This document shows positions 5,006 through 44,274 of a stretch of 64,000 nt of DNA, piece after piece. The notes below the pieces were generated by a model that was given only the letters and a program-made list of their open reading frames with translations, ran no database searches and was not told the DNA's origin. Positions within the stretch are counted from its first letter, which is position 1. The number at the start of each line of letters is the position of its first letter. The position numbers and the translations under genes are program-made. This DNA comes from Nostoc sp. Its GTDB lineage: Bacteria; Cyanobacteriota; Cyanobacteriia; Cyanobacteriales; Nostocaceae. The stretch spans positions 1,466 to 65,465 of the forward strand of contig NZ_JBALDK010000059.1 of assembly GCF_036917455.1 (NCBI RefSeq), given 5' to 3'.

Positions 5006-5245
5006 CATATCAAGCTATAACAGTACTTTGGTTCTAATCAGCGTAAATTTTATTTTCGAGCTTTGCATTTAGAGTCCCCCATTTTGAAGGGGATTAGGGG
5101 GATTCTCCTGGAGAAAACATCACTAACCCAAGCGGATTAGTTTAAATTTAGGTTAATAAAAAATTATTTATCCTTAACCAATGTTTTATAATGCCCCTTA
5201 ACAACAGCATCTTGCTCAAGATACCGCAGATTAACAGGGGAAAAT

Positions 5246-8054: not shown

Positions 8055-8528
8055 TTATTTTTTATGTTTGGGAAAATTGCGGAATAGATACACAAAGACT
8101 GCTACATTTAACAAAAAAACTAATGTCTTAAGAGGAGATATTCCCTTAATCAATTCATAAATTTCTGGTGGAATGCTGATACCGACAAGTACCAATACTA
8201 AAATATGTGCCCAACGTTTTTCATACCACAAACCAACAGCTTCAATACCAGTTACAATAGCATATATTCCTGCGCCAATGCCGCTAAATGCCAGAGTTCT
8301 GGGATTTAAGTTGATAACTTTTTGTAAAACCCAATCAATGATTATCGATTTACCTTCTAAAACATAATCGTCTGAAAAAGCCTCTAAATTTTGATAATTT
8401 TTTAACGTCAATAATAAAGCGATCGAAGTAACCATAAGCAGCAAGGCGGTAAATGATTTGTAGAGAACAATTGCCACTAACCCCAATGGACGCTTTTCCA
8501 AACAACCCCCTAAGTATATATAAGTCAA
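8055..8528 (-). CDS. DUF2127-like membrane protein
   Basis: Four hydrophobic segments and IEAVGLWYEKRWA...IPPEIYEL. Confidence 0.7.
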   Translation of the reverse strand: MTYIYLGGCLEKRPLGLVAIVLYKSFTALLLMVTSIALLLTLKNYQNLEAFSDDYVLEGKSIIIDWVLQKVINLNPRTLAFSGIGAGIYAIVTGIEAVGLWYEKRWAHILVLVLVGISIPPEIYELIKGISPLKTLVFLLNVAVFVYLFRNFPKHKK

Positions 8529-18714: not shown

Positions 18715-19074
18715 ATGCTTAAAACAAAGAATCGGCGCATTTTTCTATCTGCTTTTATTCCACCTTTAGGACAAAATCATCAAGCGGATAGTGAAAGCCA
18801 ATTAGCTCAACCTAAATTAGATTTATTGCAACCCTTACGTCAATGGCTAGACACAATTGAGATTCAGAATCGGAAATTAGCCAAATTTATTGCTAAACTG
18901 ATTCCCGCTCAGTGTCCATTCGAGCGTGATATCATGCTTTTTGGTCGCAAAGTAGCTCACATTCCACCAATGTGCAAGCTAAATCCGCTTTATAACGAAC
19001 TTGTGTACTTACGTTTTCGCGCTTTGTGTTATCTAGTAGATCAGTGTGGAGAAGATATTCAATCTTACTGCTGA
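18715..19074 (+). CDS. Stand-alone 'Mo-dependent nitrogenase C-terminal' domain protein (not a nitrogenase subunit)
   Basis: IPAQCPFERDI...HIPPMCKLNPLY..L..LRFRAL signature. Confidence 0.8.
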   Translation: MLKTKNRRIFLSAFIPPLGQNHQADSESQLAQPKLDLLQPLRQWLDTIEIQNRKLAKFIAKLIPAQCPFERDIMLFGRKVAHIPPMCKLNPLYNELVYLRFRALCYLVDQCGEDIQSYC

Positions 19075-36371: not shown

Positions 36372-37244
36372 CTACACTAGGCATTCTTGATAAACCCAAT
36401 TGTCAGGAATTCTTTCTAAAATCCCATAACCAAACACCTGATTCATTTTTAAATATTCCAGATGAACGTAACCAATATGACAGTGACAAGTTTGGTTGCT
36501 ACAAGGTTGATTAACCAAAGGTACTTCCCAGTCAGAATCATAAATATTACCAATAGGTTCTTTAATAAAATGACATCGGCGCATTGTCCCATCACCATCA
36601 ACAGAAATCGCTGATTTTCCAGCCCTACAAGAATGCCCAAAGCTAGGATAATGTTGAGTATTTAATTCATATAATGGGTCAATAGATTGGAAAAATTCTC
36701 GATTTTCTGGTGATAAATTAGGAAGTTCAGCCTTGACAGCATTAATCCACAAATAAACATGGTGTGGTAACTCCTGACGTAAAGCTGCTATTTCCGCTTG
36801 AAACTTGGGAAAACCGACAACTCCAACGCTGAATTTGACATTTTTGTTGTCTAAATTGAGGCATTTTTGTAAAAAGCGATCGCGTGACACCCATCCTGAA
36901 TGAAAAGTTGCCCAAAGTGCCAATTTATCTTTGTTACATTCATCTACCCAATCTAGCTGACAAGAGAGATTAGTTTGAATTGCGGCTTTCTTAACATTGG
37001 GCAATTGCGTTAATTTTACCAGCGCTTGCTGATACCAAGAATGGATTAGGGCTTCTCCCCAAGGAGTAAACAGAATTGAAAATTGATGTTGGGGATGTTG
37101 GGAAATCCAATTGACAAACCGTTCTAAAGATTGTTTATCGATTGCTAATTCTGCGGCTGTTTGTTGGCGTTTAGCAAAAGGGCAATATTCACACCCGTAG
37201 TTGCAACTGATTAAAGAACCGCGATAGAGAATGGTGAGGTGCAT
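36372..37244 (-). CDS. Radical SAM protein, STM4011-like
   Basis: SCNYGCEYCPF (CxxxCxxC) and a Cys-rich C-terminus (CRAG...CHF...CSNQTCHCHIG). Last gene of the module. Confidence 0.85.
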   Translation of the reverse strand: MHLTILYRGSLISCNYGCEYCPFAKRQQTAAELAIDKQSLERFVNWISQHPQHQFSILFTPWGEALIHSWYQQALVKLTQLPNVKKAAIQTNLSCQLDWVDECNKDKLALWATFHSGWVSRDRFLQKCLNLDNKNVKFSVGVVGFPKFQAEIAALRQELPHHVYLWINAVKAELPNLSPENREFFQSIDPLYELNTQHYPSFGHSCRAGKSAISVDGDGTMRRCHFIKEPIGNIYDSDWEVPLVNQPCSNQTCHCHIGYVHLEYLKMNQVFGYGILERIPDNWVYQECLV

Positions 37245-37577: not shown

Positions 37578-38921
37578 CTATTTCAACTCATAATCCTGCA
37601 TTAATTCCTGCACTTTCTCAGAAAATAACCACGTGCCAATAATATCAGAACGCTCAATGCCAAATTCAGTTAACTGCAAAATATCCTCATCTTTTATCGC
37701 CAAATTAAAAGCAAGCAGTTCTGAAAATTCTGGAAAATCAGCGTATACTTCACTATCAAATTGCTGACGATAGCTAGCACAATTCAATCCTTCATCGGAA
37801 AGCAAAGATAATAAAATATACCGCCGACGTTGTTCTTCAGCATTTAGTTGAAAACCATAGTGCGCGTAATCAAATGACTCATCTACTGTTTGAATATACG
37901 CTTGTAAAATCTTACTGATTCCCTTTGCTCCCACTGCATATTCGTTGGAGTAGTGCAAAGTATCGGTGTAGGAACGTGCGCCACAACCTAAACCAATCAT
38001 ACCGTCGGCTTGACAACAGTAAACGGGAGATGAGGAAGGAAGATTGCTACCTTGTCCTTCTTCTAAGCGTTGGAACATCCGCATGGAAACTTGCGTATAT
38101 CCTTTCGATAATAATAGCGATCGCCCTTCTCGATAACAAGCTAAACGAATATCATCCCATTCTTTATCTGTGCGTCCCAAACCTGTGAGCGATCGCACAT
38201 ACAATGGATATAAATAAATTTCTTCTGGTTGAAAACGCAAGGTAGCTTGTATTGATTGCAACCAAGTATTTACTGTTTGTCCGGGTAAACCGTAAATCAA
38301 ATCAATATTAAGCGTGGGAAATCCCATCTCTTTGATCCTTGTCAGCGTTGCTTCTACTTGGGTAGTAGATTGACGGCGCTGGGTTGCTAAAACTTCCGAA
38401 TCGATGAAGCTTTGGACACCAATACTAACACGATCGACGACGTGCGATCGCAACAGCTTTAACTTGTCCTCAGTGGCGGTTTCTGGCGAAACTTCTACAG
38501 AAATAGGAATTTCCTGTAAGTTTGCACCCATCGTATTTTCAGCAATATTGAGAATAGTTTTGAGATGCTGAATAGGTAATTGGGTAGGAGTTCCGCCACC
38601 AATAGCGAACCTAGCAAATGACGCATCACCCAACACCACTTTCATCCGTTGCGCCTGTCGGTGTAGTGTGTGGACATATTGATTCATAAAATCTTCATTG
38701 TAGCTGACTGTGGTAAACAGGTTGCAGAAACCACAACGCATTTCGCAAAACGGTATGTGTATGTAGAGAAATAGCGCTTGTCTATCTTGCTGCGCCCAAA
38801 GTTCTGGAAGATACACAGGTGGAGTTAGGGGACGATAAGCCGTTTTGTGGGGGTAAGAATAGACGTATGCTTGATAGGGAGACTGGGCGATTTTCGATTT
38901 AAGATTTTTGATTGTCAGCAT
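37578..38921 (-). CDS. HemN-like radical SAM protein, STM4012-like
   Basis: YIHIPFCEMRCGFC, GGGTPT, RVSIGVQSF, NIDLIYGLPGQ and IGLGCGA. Confidence 0.88.
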   Translation of the reverse strand: MLTIKNLKSKIAQSPYQAYVYSYPHKTAYRPLTPPVYLPELWAQQDRQALFLYIHIPFCEMRCGFCNLFTTVSYNEDFMNQYVHTLHRQAQRMKVVLGDASFARFAIGGGTPTQLPIQHLKTILNIAENTMGANLQEIPISVEVSPETATEDKLKLLRSHVVDRVSIGVQSFIDSEVLATQRRQSTTQVEATLTRIKEMGFPTLNIDLIYGLPGQTVNTWLQSIQATLRFQPEEIYLYPLYVRSLTGLGRTDKEWDDIRLACYREGRSLLLSKGYTQVSMRMFQRLEEGQGSNLPSSSPVYCCQADGMIGLGCGARSYTDTLHYSNEYAVGAKGISKILQAYIQTVDESFDYAHYGFQLNAEEQRRRYILLSLLSDEGLNCASYRQQFDSEVYADFPEFSELLAFNLAIKDEDILQLTEFGIERSDIIGTWLFSEKVQELMQDYELK

Positions 38922-39004: not shown

Positions 39005-39805
39005 TCATAAGATAAACTCTGCATAGGGAACAGTCCAAACCAAAGGATGGCTAAGTCGATGTCCAGTGTAACCATCTTCACCATAAGTTGTACCGTGGTC
39101 GGAACAGAGAATGCAAAAAGTAGAATGCCTTTGTCGTATAATATTCCAGAGTTTAGCTAATTGGCGATCGACATATTCCAAAGCTGCGGCGTGAGATTCA
39201 ATGGTATCGATTTTATCTTCTACATCGGTAAGATAGAAATAATTTGGTTGATGCAAAGCAGAAATATTTATAAATAAAAATATACGTTGATTGTTTGGCA
39301 TTTTTTCTAAAATATGTTGTGCAAGATTTACCTGATTTTCTGTAGATTCGGGGTTAGTAACTCCTAATTCTGGACTCCAATAACTTTCGGCAAACATTGA
39401 GGGAATTACATTACCTAAAGGGTTACGTTTGTTGAAAAAACCAACTCCACCAATGCAAACTGTATGATATCCCTTAGCAGCTAATCCATTAACAATATTT
39501 GAGTTATCTAACACACAAGTTGTATCAGTTGTAGTGGTACTTCCTTCAAATCCCAAAGCAAAAAGACGGGGGTGAATTCCAGGCGTTACAGGTGTGGGTA
39601 AAAAGCCTGCGAAAAACGCATGATGAGCAGCATAAGTGAAGTTTCCAGGTGAATGGCGTTCTTCCCAACCTGTTTTAGGGAGTACTTTTGCTAAGTTTGG
39701 AGTGCGTTTTTGTGCGAGTAGGTTTTTAGCTATGTTGTAACGCAATGTGTCTAGGGTAATAAATAAGATATCGTGAGTTCCGACGATTTCATTCATATTG
39801 AACAT
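39005..39805 (-). CDS. Alkaline phosphatase/sulfatase-superfamily hydrolase, STM4013-like
   Basis: FITLDTLR, PGNFTYAAH, HQP and CSDHG...GH metal ligands. Confidence 0.85.
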   Translation of the reverse strand: MFNMNEIVGTHDILFITLDTLRYNIAKNLLAQKRTPNLAKVLPKTGWEERHSPGNFTYAAHHAFFAGFLPTPVTPGIHPRLFALGFEGSTTTTDTTCVLDNSNIVNGLAAKGYHTVCIGGVGFFNKRNPLGNVIPSMFAESYWSPELGVTNPESTENQVNLAQHILEKMPNNQRIFLFINISALHQPNYFYLTDVEDKIDTIESHAAALEYVDRQLAKLWNIIRQRHSTFCILCSDHGTTYGEDGYTGHRLSHPLVWTVPYAEFIL

Positions 39806-39904: not shown

Positions 39905-41077
39905 TTATTCTCTCTCTGTTCTCTGTGTCTTTGTGGTTCGTTCCAAAATTGTTTTAACTTCACTCATATAAGTATCCATTCCACTCCATAAAATACCCGG
40001 TAACAAATCGCCAAAAGCATTAATCTCTAAAATCGCATGAGTTTTCCAATCAGGTAAAATCAGTAAATCAACTCCACAATATAAACTATTAGGAAATAAC
40101 GCTGCTGCTTGTTCGCAAGTTCGCTTCATAATCTCCCAATTTTCTACACCAATTTTTGCTAAAAATTCCTCAGTATTTCCTCGTTCATTCCCCAAATGCA
40201 AATTTGTCATCGGACTTTTACCAAGACGAACAACGATATGCTGTGCTTCGCCATTGATAACCACCACACGAACATCAAACCCGCATTCTTGTAAATGTGC
40301 TTTGGGTAGCCATTCTTCAACTTGTACGCCTTCTGCTGTCAAAATGTTGATGATATCAGCGACTTCTTCGCGGTGAGTATAGTGTTTAATTTTACGGGAG
40401 TTGTAAAGTAGAGTTTCCCCATTTTCCCGTACTCGTTCGACGGTGGTAATAGCTGATTCAAAACGCGAATTTGCGCGGTAAGCCACAACTCCAGAAGCAG
40501 CCGAACCGTGGGAAAGTTTGACGAATACTCGTTCTATTCCCTGCGTTTGCATTTGTTCGCGTAAATGATCGTAGTTGTGAATTTTACCTAGCGATCGCGG
40601 AACGGGGATATTATGACGGCTGAATCTTTCGTGACAAGTTGGTTTGTCAAACATCACAGCGATGTCTTGGGGATGGTTCATGAACTCGCCATTTATGAGA
40701 AGGGGAGTAAGTTGTGTTTCCCATTTTTGCAAGAGATAGCGCCAACCTAAATACCACTGTCGCGGGTAGAGGATGAGTCCTTTGTCAAATTCTAATTTTG
40801 TCGCTGCTTCTGCACTGATACGTTGATGATTGGAAGTAGAAAAAATCTCTCTACTCCCTTCTGCAATGATGGCTTTATCAACATCAAAGTTTTTTTCTGG
40901 AGAGTCGAAGCGGATAATAGTGTTGGGTGTGTTGAATTGTTCGAGAGTTTGTTTTCCTGCTATTAAGTCGGCGTAATCTACTACGGTGACTGGTGGTAAC
41001 TTGAAATGGACTAGGGCTTCTTGGAGGAAACCGACACGGCGGTTTTCGGGATTGGCGATGAGGATGAAATTAAGCAT
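39905..41077 (-). CDS. ATP-grasp (RimK-like) protein, STM4014-like
   Basis: FVKLSHGSAASG, VEEWLPK, FDVRVVV and LEINAFGD. Confidence 0.82.
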   Translation of the reverse strand: MLNFILIANPENRRVGFLQEALVHFKLPPVTVVDYADLIAGKQTLEQFNTPNTIIRFDSPEKNFDVDKAIIAEGSREIFSTSNHQRISAEAATKLEFDKGLILYPRQWYLGWRYLLQKWETQLTPLLINGEFMNHPQDIAVMFDKPTCHERFSRHNIPVPRSLGKIHNYDHLREQMQTQGIERVFVKLSHGSAASGVVAYRANSRFESAITTVERVRENGETLLYNSRKIKHYTHREEVADIINILTAEGVQVEEWLPKAHLQECGFDVRVVVINGEAQHIVVRLGKSPMTNLHLGNERGNTEEFLAKIGVENWEIMKRTCEQAAALFPNSLYCGVDLLILPDWKTHAILEINAFGDLLPGILWSGMDTYMSEVKTILERTTKTQRTERE

Positions 41078-41092
41078 TATCTAATATATTCT

Positions 41093-41958
41093 TTATTCGT
41101 GGAGGGCAAAATAGCGAGAAGCACTATACCCGTAAGCTATCTCTTCTTGAGAATGAGCAATTAACAAACAATCAATAAGCGATGATTGTTTAATGTCGTG
41201 AATAAATTCTTCCGATACGGAATTGTGAGCAATATTAAGTGTATGTAGATTAATGATTGCTTGTGATTCAATAAAGCGTTCAAGCCTATGTCTGTCAAAT
41301 TTTCCATTGACAAATCAAGTACTTCAAGAGTTGCAACAATGGGAGATTCAGCCATAAAAGAAGATTGAGCGATCACATCTGCTATTGCATCACTATAATC
41401 GCTACTACACAAACCTAAATATCGTAAATTTGGGAATGATTCACTAAAAATAATTAGTTTTAAACTATCAATAGTATCATCATAGCTATGTTCAGAACGT
41501 ATACCCATCCATAAGTCAAAACACTCTAGTTTTGGTAAATCGAGTGAACAAAGGCAATAAATTGTGACATCGCTAATATTTGCTATCTCAACTGGATTGA
41601 TGATACCAGCTTGAGCATTGAGACTTTCGGCTGTCCAATCTTTTAAAGTTGTAAAAAACAACCAAGCTTCACACCATAAAAGTGCTTGCTTTCCTTTGCC
41701 TTCTGTTTCTTGCAATAGCTCAAGGGCAATTTTATAGATTTTCTGCGAGGAATCTTGCAATGCATCAATCACTAAATCTAAACCTACATTTCCATAATTT
41801 AATGCGTCTGACAGTGCAGCAAATTGCACCTCAAAAACTCCCATATTTAACCTATTTTTAACCCCTTGTATACCTCCTAAAACCACACGACTATTAAATG
41901 GTACTTCGCCATCAAGTACTGTATCAAATTCTCTGGATTGATTTAGATTATTATTCAT
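41093..41958 (-). pseudogene. Second STM4015-like LRR paralog, with an internal deletion and a frameshift near 41265
   Basis: Starts MNNNLNQSREFDTVLDG...VVLGGIQGVKNRL at 41958. Lacks the central region relative to 42053..43306. After LLN a shifted frame gives QAIINLHTLNIAHNS...SRYFALHE* (stop 41093-41095). Confidence 0.8.
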
Positions 41959-42052
41959 AGTTAAAAGTGAATTCATTAAGAGAAAGTTTTTTAACCCACG
42001 CATGGGGGTTTTGTCTGTGTAGCCGCGTCTTACAGTCACCTGATACTAAAGT

Positions 42053-43306
42053 TCACTCTGCAATAGAACAATAGCGACCGTGGATGTAACTATCCTCATC
42101 TTCTTGCTTCTGATTACTTACCAAAATACGCACATCCAATTCAGATAATTTATCAATCATCTCCTGAGATAAAAAGCTTTCGGAAACATTCAGAATATCG
42201 AGATAATTTGTCGCCGGACAATTGAGCAATTCTTCCGCACCTGCGTCACTCAGCGTCCCCATTGAAAGGTCAAGTACGCTGATAGAATTAATAATCGGAG
42301 AACCAACAATAACGCTGACGATTTCATTCGTGAATTGGCTATTACGTAATCCTAAATAAGTCAAGTTAGGAAATTTCCCTTCAAACAGAATCGGATTTAA
42401 ATCTTCAACCCAACAATCTCCGCCGTAATCTTCACTGCCAAACCATAATTCTAAATGTTCTAATGCTGGCAGATTCATATTAAAAACTTCTGCAACAGTA
42501 TCTCTACTTAAAGCCCCAGCTTCAACAATGAATGCTTTGAGGTGATTGTGTCGCACTTGGGGACTAAATTGTAAACCGTCCCCTCCACGAATTTGCAAAA
42601 TTTCAAGTTTGGGATAAGCTTGCAAAACCAGACTGATATTACTTTGTCGAATCCAAGAAATTTCACAATCATGAGAATCTATATCACCGATGAAAACAGC
42701 TTTGAGATTAGTTAAATATTTTTTAGCATCAACTAAAGCTTGGACAATGCTACTTGAATCCCTTTCGTATGCTTCCACCCATAAACCAAACACTAAAGCT
42801 TCTAATTTCTCGGCGTTGGGTTCTTGTAGTAGTCTACTAAGTTTACTCGGCAAATTATCCTCATACTCATAATATTCAGACCTAAGAGCGTAAGCATTAT
42901 TAACAGGTTCAACAATACCTATATTTGCATCGAAATCTACAATTTGCCGATTTGCAAATGAATTAACATTCATTGGATACTCATTTAATCTTTCTTCTAA
43001 ATTCCAAGGTTTATATGTTCGCAATGCTTGTATAACTTGCGCTTCTACTCTTGGCTTTAATAGTCGATAAGCAAAACGCTGCACCAACCTCGATTTATCT
43101 TGCAATCCTTGAATTAATAAATTCAACCCAGCATCACCATATTTCAAGGCTTCGCTAAGTGCAGTAACCCGCACCTGAGTAACAGGATTTGATAAATAAC
43201 GTTTAACTCCCTCAATTCCTCCTAAAACTACTCCATCCATAGGAGGCGGAGATTGTCCTCCCAACACTGCATCATAATCTCTGGGTTGATTTTGGTTGTC
43301 TGTCAT
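42053..43306 (-). CDS. STM4015-like leucine-rich-repeat protein with an N-terminal HEAT-like module
   Basis: LEALVFGLW, NLKAVFIGD, LPALEHLELWFG, FPNLTYLGLRNS and VLDLSMGTLSD repeats; C-terminus RYCSIAE. Confidence 0.85.
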   Translation of the reverse strand: MTDNQNQPRDYDAVLGGQSPPPMDGVVLGGIEGVKRYLSNPVTQVRVTALSEALKYGDAGLNLLIQGLQDKSRLVQRFAYRLLKPRVEAQVIQALRTYKPWNLEERLNEYPMNVNSFANRQIVDFDANIGIVEPVNNAYALRSEYYEYEDNLPSKLSRLLQEPNAEKLEALVFGLWVEAYERDSSSIVQALVDAKKYLTNLKAVFIGDIDSHDCEISWIRQSNISLVLQAYPKLEILQIRGGDGLQFSPQVRHNHLKAFIVEAGALSRDTVAEVFNMNLPALEHLELWFGSEDYGGDCWVEDLNPILFEGKFPNLTYLGLRNSQFTNEIVSVIVGSPIINSISVLDLSMGTLSDAGAEELLNCPATNYLDILNVSESFLSQEMIDKLSELDVRILVSNQKQEDEDSYIHGRYCSIAE

Positions 43307-43341
43307 AGTGCTTTACCTTTCAATTCTTTATTAGAATTCCC

Positions 43342-43380
43342 AAAAATGCGGAATATGCACACATCCAATGCATATTCCGC
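43342..43380 (-). terminator. Terminator-like hairpin in the leader of the STM4015-like gene
   Basis: Perfect 12-bp stem GCGGAATATGCA / TGCATATTCCGC followed on the minus strand by ATTTTT. Confidence 0.55.
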
Positions 43381-43436
43381 CCCGACTACTGGAAGCCGTA
43401 GCTACACAAACTAAGTCAGCTTGTACTCGTTCAAAT

Positions 43437-43465
43437 ATAGTACAATAGTTCTACTCTGTTGACAA
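43437..43465 (-). promoter_or_regulatory. Sigma70-type promoter overlapped by a cyanobacterial LexA box
   Basis: Minus strand TTGTCA-17 nt-TACTAT with TG just upstream of the -10. Plus-strand AGTAC-AAT-AGTTCT (43439-43452) fits RGTACNNNDGTWCB. Confidence 0.6.
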
Positions 43466-43588
43466 AAGTTGTGGGGGATTCCTTTGTTTATACTAGTAGG
43501 CGTGCCAATTGCCGTTAGTGGAAATTTAGTAGAAGATAGAGATGATTGTGCCACTTTTATATCCTGAAGAAATCAAAATTCTACACTT

Positions 43589-43801
43589 ATGGCAGAGTAT
43601 CAAAAAGCTGAATATCGTATTGGCAAAGATGGCAAAATTACTGAAACCGTAATTGGTGCTTCTGGTGCAGCTTGTACCAGCACAACATCTGGAATTGAAG
43701 ATGCTTTGGGAGAGGTAGAAACTCAAGAATTGCTTCCTGAATATTACGAAGGGCAAGAAAACGTGACAGGAACAGAACAACAGTCTCTCAAACAAAAATA
43801 G
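43589..43801 (+). CDS. DUF2997-like small protein
   Basis: EYRIGKDGKITETVIGASGAAC...IEDALGEV...PEYY. Confidence 0.75.
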   Translation: MAEYQKAEYRIGKDGKITETVIGASGAACTSTTSGIEDALGEVETQELLPEYYEGQENVTGTEQQSLKQK

Positions 43802-43812
43802 GAGAGATATAG

Positions 43813-44274
43813 ATGCTCGCAGACATCATATCAAACATCCAGGAAAGCGGAATGTTTTCTCTGGAAAGTGTTTTGACGATCGCAATCGAATTTTTGGCGT
43901 TACTTTTGATTATTCCAGCAATTAAGGCTGCGATCGCTTCTCAACCACACAAGTTAACACAAGCGCGATCACAAGCACAAATTGAATCACTAGAAAATGA
44001 ACTAAAAACAACTCATCAAAACTATTTAGAACAGCAGCAAAAAATACAACATCTGCTTTCTGAAAAAGCAGCACTCCATCAAGAAGGCTTCCGACTGCAT
44101 GAAGAATTACAGCAGCAACGTGTTGAACTATCGGAGGAATTTCGCACTTCCACATTTGAGCAATTGCAGACATTGCTGACAAACTATCCAAGCATCCACC
44201 AGATGTCGTATTCATTGGTCTTTTTCCCGCTTTTTGCAATGAATGAACAATCCATCACGGCAATCATCGAGTGA
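43813..44274 (+). pseudogene. Membrane-anchored coiled-coil protein, 3' end apparently replaced by an IS remnant
   Basis: TM segment plus Q/E-rich coiled coil. The last ~20 codons read through the antisense of transposase sequence. Confidence 0.55.

Follow-up and report, generated by a model that had tools for sequence, protein, structure and literature searches.

A putative LexA operator upstream of the STM4015–STM4011 cassette in Nostoc and other cyanobacteria

The 64,000-nucleotide stretch of Nostoc DNA which we analysed as a whole (the window) contains a 14-bp imperfect palindrome, AGTAC-N4-GTTCT, at positions 43439–43452, which is probably a LexA operator lying on the promoter of an STM4015–STM4011 operon and keeping this cassette of enzymes repressed. 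The view that the palindrome is an additional LexA operator is well supported by comparison with other cyanobacterial genomes, in which similar boxes precede the same cassette, and the tie which it suggests between a cassette lacking an assigned function and a defined regulator is new. From the sequence we infer the binding of LexA, the start of transcription, an effect of repression rather than activation, and the inducing signal. The box is situated within the 282-nt intergenic region between the STM4015-family gene and a divergently transcribed DUF2997 gene, and the features of this region are as follows.

43438–43453, + strand: candidate LexA box, 16-mer TAGTACAATAGTTCTA, with the core 14-mer AGTACAATAGTTCT at 43439–43452
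43437–43465, − strand: sigma-70-like promoter candidate facing the operon (consensus scan, 9/12 matches)
43465–43460, − strand: −35 hexamer TTGTCA, followed by a 17-nt spacer
43442–43437, − strand: −10 hexamer TACTAT, sharing bases with the candidate LexA box
43462–43434, − strand: alternative promoter candidate TCAACA-17-TATATT (consensus scan), overlapping TTGTCA-17-TACTAT
43347–43436, − strand: predicted 5' leader, with a 13-bp hairpin (43380–43348) and a U-run
43307–43346, − strand: conserved leader beside the ribosome-binding site, TTTTTGGGAATTCTAATAAAGAATTGAAAGGTAAAGCACT, followed by ATG

Read directly, positions 43433–43468 of the window are aaataTAGTACAATAGTTCTActctgTTGACAaaag, and in the orientation of the operon the candidate box reads TAGAACTATTGTACTA. 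The preliminary description had placed a box together with TTGTCA-N17-TACTAT on the minus strand, about 130 bp before the leucine-rich-repeat gene, and the sequence bears this out, the distance to the start of the STM4015-family gene (43306) being 132–133 nt. For the LexA protein of Anabaena/Nostoc sp. PCC 7120, Mazon et al. 2004 are said to have reported the consensus RGTACNNNDGTWCB, with lexA, recA, ssb and uvrA among the genes concerned. A motif scan finds that AGTACAATAGTTCT (43439–43452, + strand) matches this consensus exactly, as had been claimed. The candidate thus shares the 14-bp imperfect palindrome of the PCC 7120 boxes, is intergenic, and has the flanking T and A found at the lexA and recA boxes of its own genome; it differs from the PCC 7120 boxes in that it faces an uncharacterised enzyme cassette and not a DNA-repair or replication gene. 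The A at its position 9 is allowed by the consensus and rare among published sites. Its distance to the start codon is inside the published range of −16 to −172 (PMC3091678), and the cyanobacterial LexA consensus of Li et al. 2010 is AGTACWNWTGTACT (PMC3091678).

The candidate box overlaps ten nucleotides of the promoter spacer and the first four nucleotides of the −10 hexamer TACTAT. The overlap is not independent evidence, because some bases of the −10-like hexamer belong to the box. Two promoter-like sites were found in 43200–43700, both on the minus strand, against 1.2 expected in shuffled sequences, and TTGTCA-17-TACTAT is the candidate for the promoter of the operon. All box-bearing orthologs have TACTAT, TACTAA or a similar hexamer after the box, while their −35 element varies. 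What had been proposed was a LexA box on the operon-facing promoter; comparison strongly supports the box, while the promoter itself is a consensus match only. SOS operators overlap promoter hexamers, as is the case for CTGT-N8-ACAG in E. coli and the Cheo box CGAAC-N4-GTTCG in B. subtilis. Here the palindrome likewise lies on the −10 element and the spacer, which predicts exclusion of RNA polymerase, and the gene of the repressor likewise carries the same operator, consistent with autoregulation. The sequence of the half-sites differs from both, and so does the protein, since cleavage of the Anabaena-type LexA has no demonstrated dependence on RecA, and the signal may extend beyond DNA damage.

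According to the mechanism which we propose, a LexA dimer bound to AGTAC-N4-GTTCT would occupy the spacer and the start of TACTAT, bar RNA polymerase from the promoter and so leave the cassette silent. Inactivation of LexA would then derepress the operon together with lexA, recA and ssb. The trigger would be self-cleavage of LexA under DNA-damaging or other stress, and its nature is debated. Transcription released in this way would pass through a leader of about 125 nt, whose hairpin could attenuate it.

The genes of the operon were assigned to families by NCBIfam profiles; they are given below together with the divergent neighbour.

42053–43306, − strand: STM4015-family leucine-rich-repeat protein, 417 aa, first gene of the operon (NF038076, 290 bits, cut-off 275)
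41161–42039, − strand: partial or decaying STM4015 paralogue (NF038076, 75.8 bits, under the cut-off)
39905–41077, − strand: STM4014-family ATP-grasp protein (NF038074, 428 bits)
39005–39805, − strand: STM4013/SEN3800-family hydrolase, sulfatase or alkaline-phosphatase fold (NF038075, 432 bits; PF00884)
37578–38921, − strand: STM4012-family radical SAM protein, HemN-like (NF006067, 617 bits)
36372–37244, − strand: STM4011-family radical SAM protein (NF038073, 412 bits)
43589–43801, + strand: DUF2997 protein, 70 aa, divergent neighbour (PF11211)

All five families of the STM4011–STM4015 cassette, the type locus of which is in Salmonella, are represented here and arranged as usual (4015-4014-4013-4012-4011); four of them score far above the NCBIfam cut-offs and STM4015 narrowly so (290 against 275 bits). 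Matches of the STM4014-family protein to ATP-grasp families of Pfam are weak, with only RimK over its cut-off, and the STM4013-type hydrolase has 6,333 relatives at E <= 1e-20. The copies of the cassette in Paenibacillus, Salmonella and Streptomyces have the same gene order, whereas extra N-terminal domains and tandem repeat-protein paralogues are peculiar to the cyanobacterial copies. In Myxococcus xanthus DK 1622 (L107) the repeat proteins of the cassette have WGR domains, and its genes are distributed over both strands beside ivWA and KAP-NTPase genes. The cassette is widespread across bacterial phyla, and the literature on it contains no published function or inducing condition and no report of its expression in cyanobacteria; the conserved box is therefore the first clue to the conditions under which it is switched on. 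Membership of a known defence system was considered and set aside: a PADLOC search gave weak radical SAM matches only, and the cassette is not in PADLOC.

How far is the box kept in front of orthologous cassettes? The loci compared came from 27 named genomes and two additional named ones, 61 relatives and a phylum-level sample. Among 401 Cyanobacteriales genomes surveyed, 23 in 11 genera carry the cassette, and the phylum-level sample added one new genus only (g146), in which the box is present. A box scoring 13.4–20 bits (by the matrix described below) lies about 100–290 nt upstream of the first STM4015-family gene in 7/12 genera and 5/8 families that carry the cassette. The boxes are the following.

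Ten other Nostoc species: AGTACATTTGTTTT in seven, AGTACAATTGTTCT in strain 106C, GGTACATTTGTATT in T09
Genus g28: AGTACATTTGTTTT; Nostoc sp. PCC 7524 is placed here by its near-identical box region
Genus g146: AGTACAAGTGTTCT
Microcoleus FACHB-831 (family f13): AGTACATTTGTACT
Genome G431 (family f14): AGTACTTTTGTACT
Aliterella (family f17): AGTATGTTTGTACT
Chlorogloea and a congener (family f17): AGTACATTAGTTCT
Genome G146 (family f36): AGTACATCAGTACC

In Nostoc sp. PCC 7524 the box, AAAACAAATGTACT, is about 100 nt upstream of the cassette, and at the corresponding position Microseira wollei has AGTATTTTTCTACTAT, a degenerate form of the box. Read in the direction of the cassette genes, every box ends in GTACTA(T/A) or a close variant, producing a −10-like TACTAT or TACTAA, and the asymmetric boxes all point the same way with respect to the cassette. 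When eleven Nostoc-type upstream regions were aligned, the box was the best-conserved block of their central part, and it is kept in PCC 7524 and 106C although their flanks can no longer be aligned. We take the retention of the box across unalignable spacers as a sign of selection. A site of at least 13.4 bits is expected in about 0.009 (0.9%) of 300-nt intergenic stretches, so that its occurrence in 7/12 genera corresponds to a binomial tail of 3e-12, with the qualification that the genera are not fully independent. In the complete Nostoc genome G414 (L074), the 290-nt DUF2997–STM4015 region contains two LexA-like boxes, AGTACATTTGTTTT and GGTACAGATGTACG, at 8106 and 8163.

The box is by no means universal. 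It is absent in 11/20 other Nostoc species, the closest relatives of the genome studied here included. Four of these 11 have a DUF2997–STM4015 intergenic region of 145–149 nt without a segment equivalent to 43375–43506, which holds the box and the promoter, and in the other seven the upstream region is rearranged (the loci behind the losses are L006, L008, L009, L045, L046, L048 and L053). Such deletions and rearrangements imply that LexA control is dispensable; it appears to have been lost repeatedly within Nostoc and to be easily lost. Families f33 (six genomes) and f34 (two genomes) have no box before the cassette despite having lexA, and their gene order is rearranged. It had been suggested that orthologous promoters be searched for the box, and this search yields a divided answer: the box is there in seven genera of five families, whereas roughly half of the Nostoc species, as well as f33, f34 and f38, are without it. 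Outside the cyanobacteria, no convincing box of the lineage type was seen before the cassette at the four loci examined (Paenibacillus, Salmonella, Streptomyces plasmids and Myxococcus xanthus), the Paenibacillus plasmid having only CGAACATTGGTATG, with 2 mismatches, and LexA control of the cassette beyond cyanobacteria was accordingly dropped as a proposal.

Does the box follow the lexA gene itself? In 11/11 surveyed box-bearing relatives, as in the genome studied here, lexA is preceded by AGTAC(G/T)AATGTTCT. Three genomes of family f38 (G147, G291 and G103), which are 95–100% complete and have the cassette, have no detectable lexA and no cassette box. The idea that the cassette box tracks a canonical autoregulatory box of lexA holds in part, as f33 has lexA and no cassette box. 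The lexA gene of f33 (L093–L097, genus g48) has a variant box with one mismatch, AGTACGACCGCTCT, and encodes a LexA protein of canonical appearance; the pattern of the variant, TAGTACGAC(C/A)G(C/A)TCTATAGTAG, has a non-T base in the right half-site. The correlation between lexA and the box is imperfect, and only the absence of lexA in f38 is clean. In the genome studied here LexA (TIGR00498, 204 bits) retains its helix-turn-helix, the Ala-Gly cleavage site (AAGG), the catalytic Ser (GDSM) and the catalytic Lys (TLKRF), and recA is present and bears a box.

The distribution of the motif within this genome is less decisive. The 14-mer consensus has 3 matches in the window against 0.30 expected from dinucleotide shuffles, and in the whole 6.77-Mb genome 75 matches where base composition predicts about 104. 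Enrichment across the genome was accordingly dropped as a sign of function, and the caution about chance matches given in the preliminary description was fair; support must come from position, flanks and conservation. The two further exact matches in the window (5022–5035 and 18996–19009) both look like chance occurrences: one of them is in the intergenic DNA that separates the rplL terminator from a gene for a solute-binding protein, and the other is inside a gene whose product is a Mo-nitrogenase C-terminal domain protein. More can be learned from the flanks. The lexA operator of this genome (contig C219) is TAGTACTAATGTTCTA and its recA operator (contig C15) is TAGTATATCTGTTCTA, both identical to operators listed for Anabaena (PMC3091678, Table 1), and TAGTACAATAGTTCTA has the same 16-mer form, TAGTAY-N3-D-GTTCTA, as these two. 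Besides the candidate site, TAGTAYNNNDGTTCTA occurs only three more times in the 6.77 Mb: before lexA, before recA, and in the stretch that separates dnaX from an unnamed gene. Each of these four copies is intergenic, where 0.63 intergenic copies would be expected by chance (P(>=4) = 0.004); for the two copies beyond lexA and recA, P = 0.13.

We also scored sites with a weight matrix made from 48 published cyanobacterial sites (Li et al. 2010, PMC3091678, Table 1). The highest score in the genome, 19.8 bits, belongs to AGTACACCTGTACT (C165:10606), 14 nt before an ssb gene, and since this site matches the known Anabaena ssb operator it validates the matrix. The candidate scores 14.4 bits, recA 15.0 and lexA 17.3, and among the intergenic sites of the genome ssb ranks 1, lexA 5, recA 27 and the candidate 35. 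The density of high-scoring sites in intergenic DNA is 3 to 9 times that in coding DNA; for sites that score at least as high as the candidate the ratio is 3.3. Within its own genome alone, the candidate LexA site is therefore plausible and not compelling. The matrix also drew attention to TAGTACATTTGTTCTA (C24:6338–6353), the fourth-best intergenic site with 17.9 bits, which lies 223 nt from dnaX, encoding DNA polymerase III tau/gamma, and 137 nt from the unnamed gene of 232 aa; it is likely to be a further LexA target.

More questions surround the signal to which the operon would respond. The preliminary description had gone on to propose that the operon is DNA-damage inducible. This does not follow automatically from a LexA site, and we consider it possible but somewhat doubtful. 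It is a separate step because the LexA protein of Anabaena is cleaved without RecA in vitro. As Kumar et al. 2015 are cited in PMC7283527 and PMC13416735, autocleavage of the protein from Anabaena PCC 7120 in vitro is RecA-independent and occurs only at alkaline pH, and these papers also cite a LexA regulon of more than 40 genes from many classes of stress. In Synechocystis LexA is not an SOS regulator (PMC4759255, PMC7567884). It may be, then, that LexA binds the box as a general stress or redox regulator and that the operon has no SOS function; the cassette could in that case respond to oxidative, pH, desiccation or metal stress, for example, and even activation could be envisaged. We regard this alternative as rather unlikely, although more likely than the others considered here. 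Apart from the in vitro cleavage, the breadth of the regulon and the Synechocystis case, it draws on the four non-cyanobacterial cassettes without a box of the lineage type, which imply that a link to DNA damage is no general property of the cassette. Against it, the site is most like the operators of lexA, recA and ssb, that is, the core of DNA metabolism. In Anabaena, replication defects caused by PolA depletion induce lexA, recA and ssb1, and mitomycin C induces ssb1 (PMC7283527); in Chroococcidiopsis, recA and lexA are induced by H2O2 (PMC13416735). As for activation, the position of the box on the −10 element points instead to repression.

Could the box serve the divergent DUF2997 gene (43589, + strand), alone or together with the cassette? 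It is nearly equidistant from the two start codons, 136 nt from that of DUF2997 and 132 nt from that of the cassette, and its orientation relative to DUF2997 is that of the lexA and recA boxes relative to their genes. In Leptolyngbya NIES-2104 a box-like sequence, TAGTACATTTTTTCTA, precedes a DUF2997/coiled-coil/Hsp70-like operon that adjoins the cassette, and in Aliterella a box match with one mismatch is found upstream of DUF2997. The consensus scan, however, found no promoter-like site facing the plus strand in this region, and in 8 other genomes no box precedes the homologues of DUF2997. In four lineages, moreover, the box stands between the cassette and a neighbour other than DUF2997: in Aliterella and Chlorogloea this neighbour is a co-directional Hsp70-like gene, in PCC 7524 an antiporter-subunit gene and in 106C an unrelated short gene. 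Since the neighbour differs and the box stays, the box goes with the cassette and not with DUF2997. Finally, the DUF2997-proximal segment of about 80 nt (43507–43588) is kept in those Nostoc genomes in which the box segment is deleted. DUF2997 is probably not the main target, and we consider it quite unlikely that the box serves this gene at all, although joint control of the two genes would be conceivable in Nostoc. The neighbouring genes themselves form a recurring group. A module of DUF2997, coiled-coil and Hsp70-like genes adjoins the cassette in Leptolyngbya NIES-2104 and Aliterella, while Chlorogloea has the Hsp70-like gene next to the cassette and Nostoc the DUF2997 and coiled-coil genes only (43589–44274 of the window; elsewhere L105 3206–5590 and L072 3867–4622).

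It is also conceivable that LexA is uninvolved and that the conserved block belongs to the promoter itself or is bound by some other regulator. The conserved part does include the −10-like TACTAT, and the −10 consensus has sequence in common with the LexA half-site GTACT(A). In several orthologs one half-site, on the right or the left, is the weaker GTTTT (AGTACATTTGTTTT), and f33 and f34 carry the cassette and lexA without the box. Yet both half-sites are conserved at the correct spacing of 4 nt, and not the −10 side alone; the near-perfect palindromes AGTACATTTGTACT and AGTACTTTTGTACT, which occur in several lineages, would be needless for a plain −10 element; and the three genomes without lexA have no box. 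The regulator NtcA was considered by name and rejected, as its site, GTA-N8-TAC, does not fit the spacing of N9 seen here (GTAcaatagttcTAC) or of N6 in the palindromic orthologs. On these grounds a role for the block that leaves LexA aside appears very unlikely. That the match is a functionless chance occurrence is extremely unlikely: the 75 genomic matches, the modest 14.4 bits and the window's two other matches, of which one is intragenic, would agree with it, but the box recurs in the same place and orientation in seven genera with diverged flanks, its own flanks match those at the lexA and recA operators, and a check for mobile-repeat origin found no other copy of the intergenic region in its own genome.

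If LexA indeed acts on the cassette, then the cyanobacterial LexA regulon, the scope and trigger of which are debated, would come to include an enzyme system that is not concerned with repair. The conditions which this suggests for the cassette are inactivation of LexA, DNA damage or oxidative stress, and its carriers include the culturable Nostoc sp. PCC 7524. More tentatively, the cyanobacterial cassette, with its two radical SAM enzymes, ATP-grasp ligase, metallo-hydrolase and leucine-rich-repeat protein, might be an unrecognised effector arm of the LexA response to stress or DNA damage, switched on with recA, ssb and lexA. Its chemistry, perhaps a modification of the cassette's repeat protein, would in that case help the cell to tolerate damage, or else act in suicide or defence upon injury of the genome, for example by phage attack.

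The leader between the putative promoter and the operon has features of its own. It folds with −39.1 kcal/mol (z = −2.9) and includes a perfect 13-bp hairpin (43348–43380, − strand), followed by AUUUUUGGG, about 40 nt before the start codon. The hairpin and the U-run look like an attenuator or a terminator and could halt transcripts from the candidate promoter short of the operon; the hairpin is missing from most orthologous leaders. An Rfam scan of 43200–43700 gave no match above noise, and no leader peptide or small ORF of note was found in the intergenic region. The segment at 43307–43346 is well conserved in most Nostoc orthologs, also in those that have lost the box region. A further 30 nt of the leader, 43388–43417 (ACTGGAAGCCGTAGCTACACAAACTAAGTC), has no second copy in its own genome. 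Elsewhere in Nostoc, six to seven genomes have a 90–93% match to it at one conserved, unrelated locus, where the matching sequence lies beside a GTCCGC...GCGGAC hairpin (L025–L028, L030, L031), and ACTGGAAGCCGTAGCTACACAAACTAAGTC may be part of some small dispersed element.
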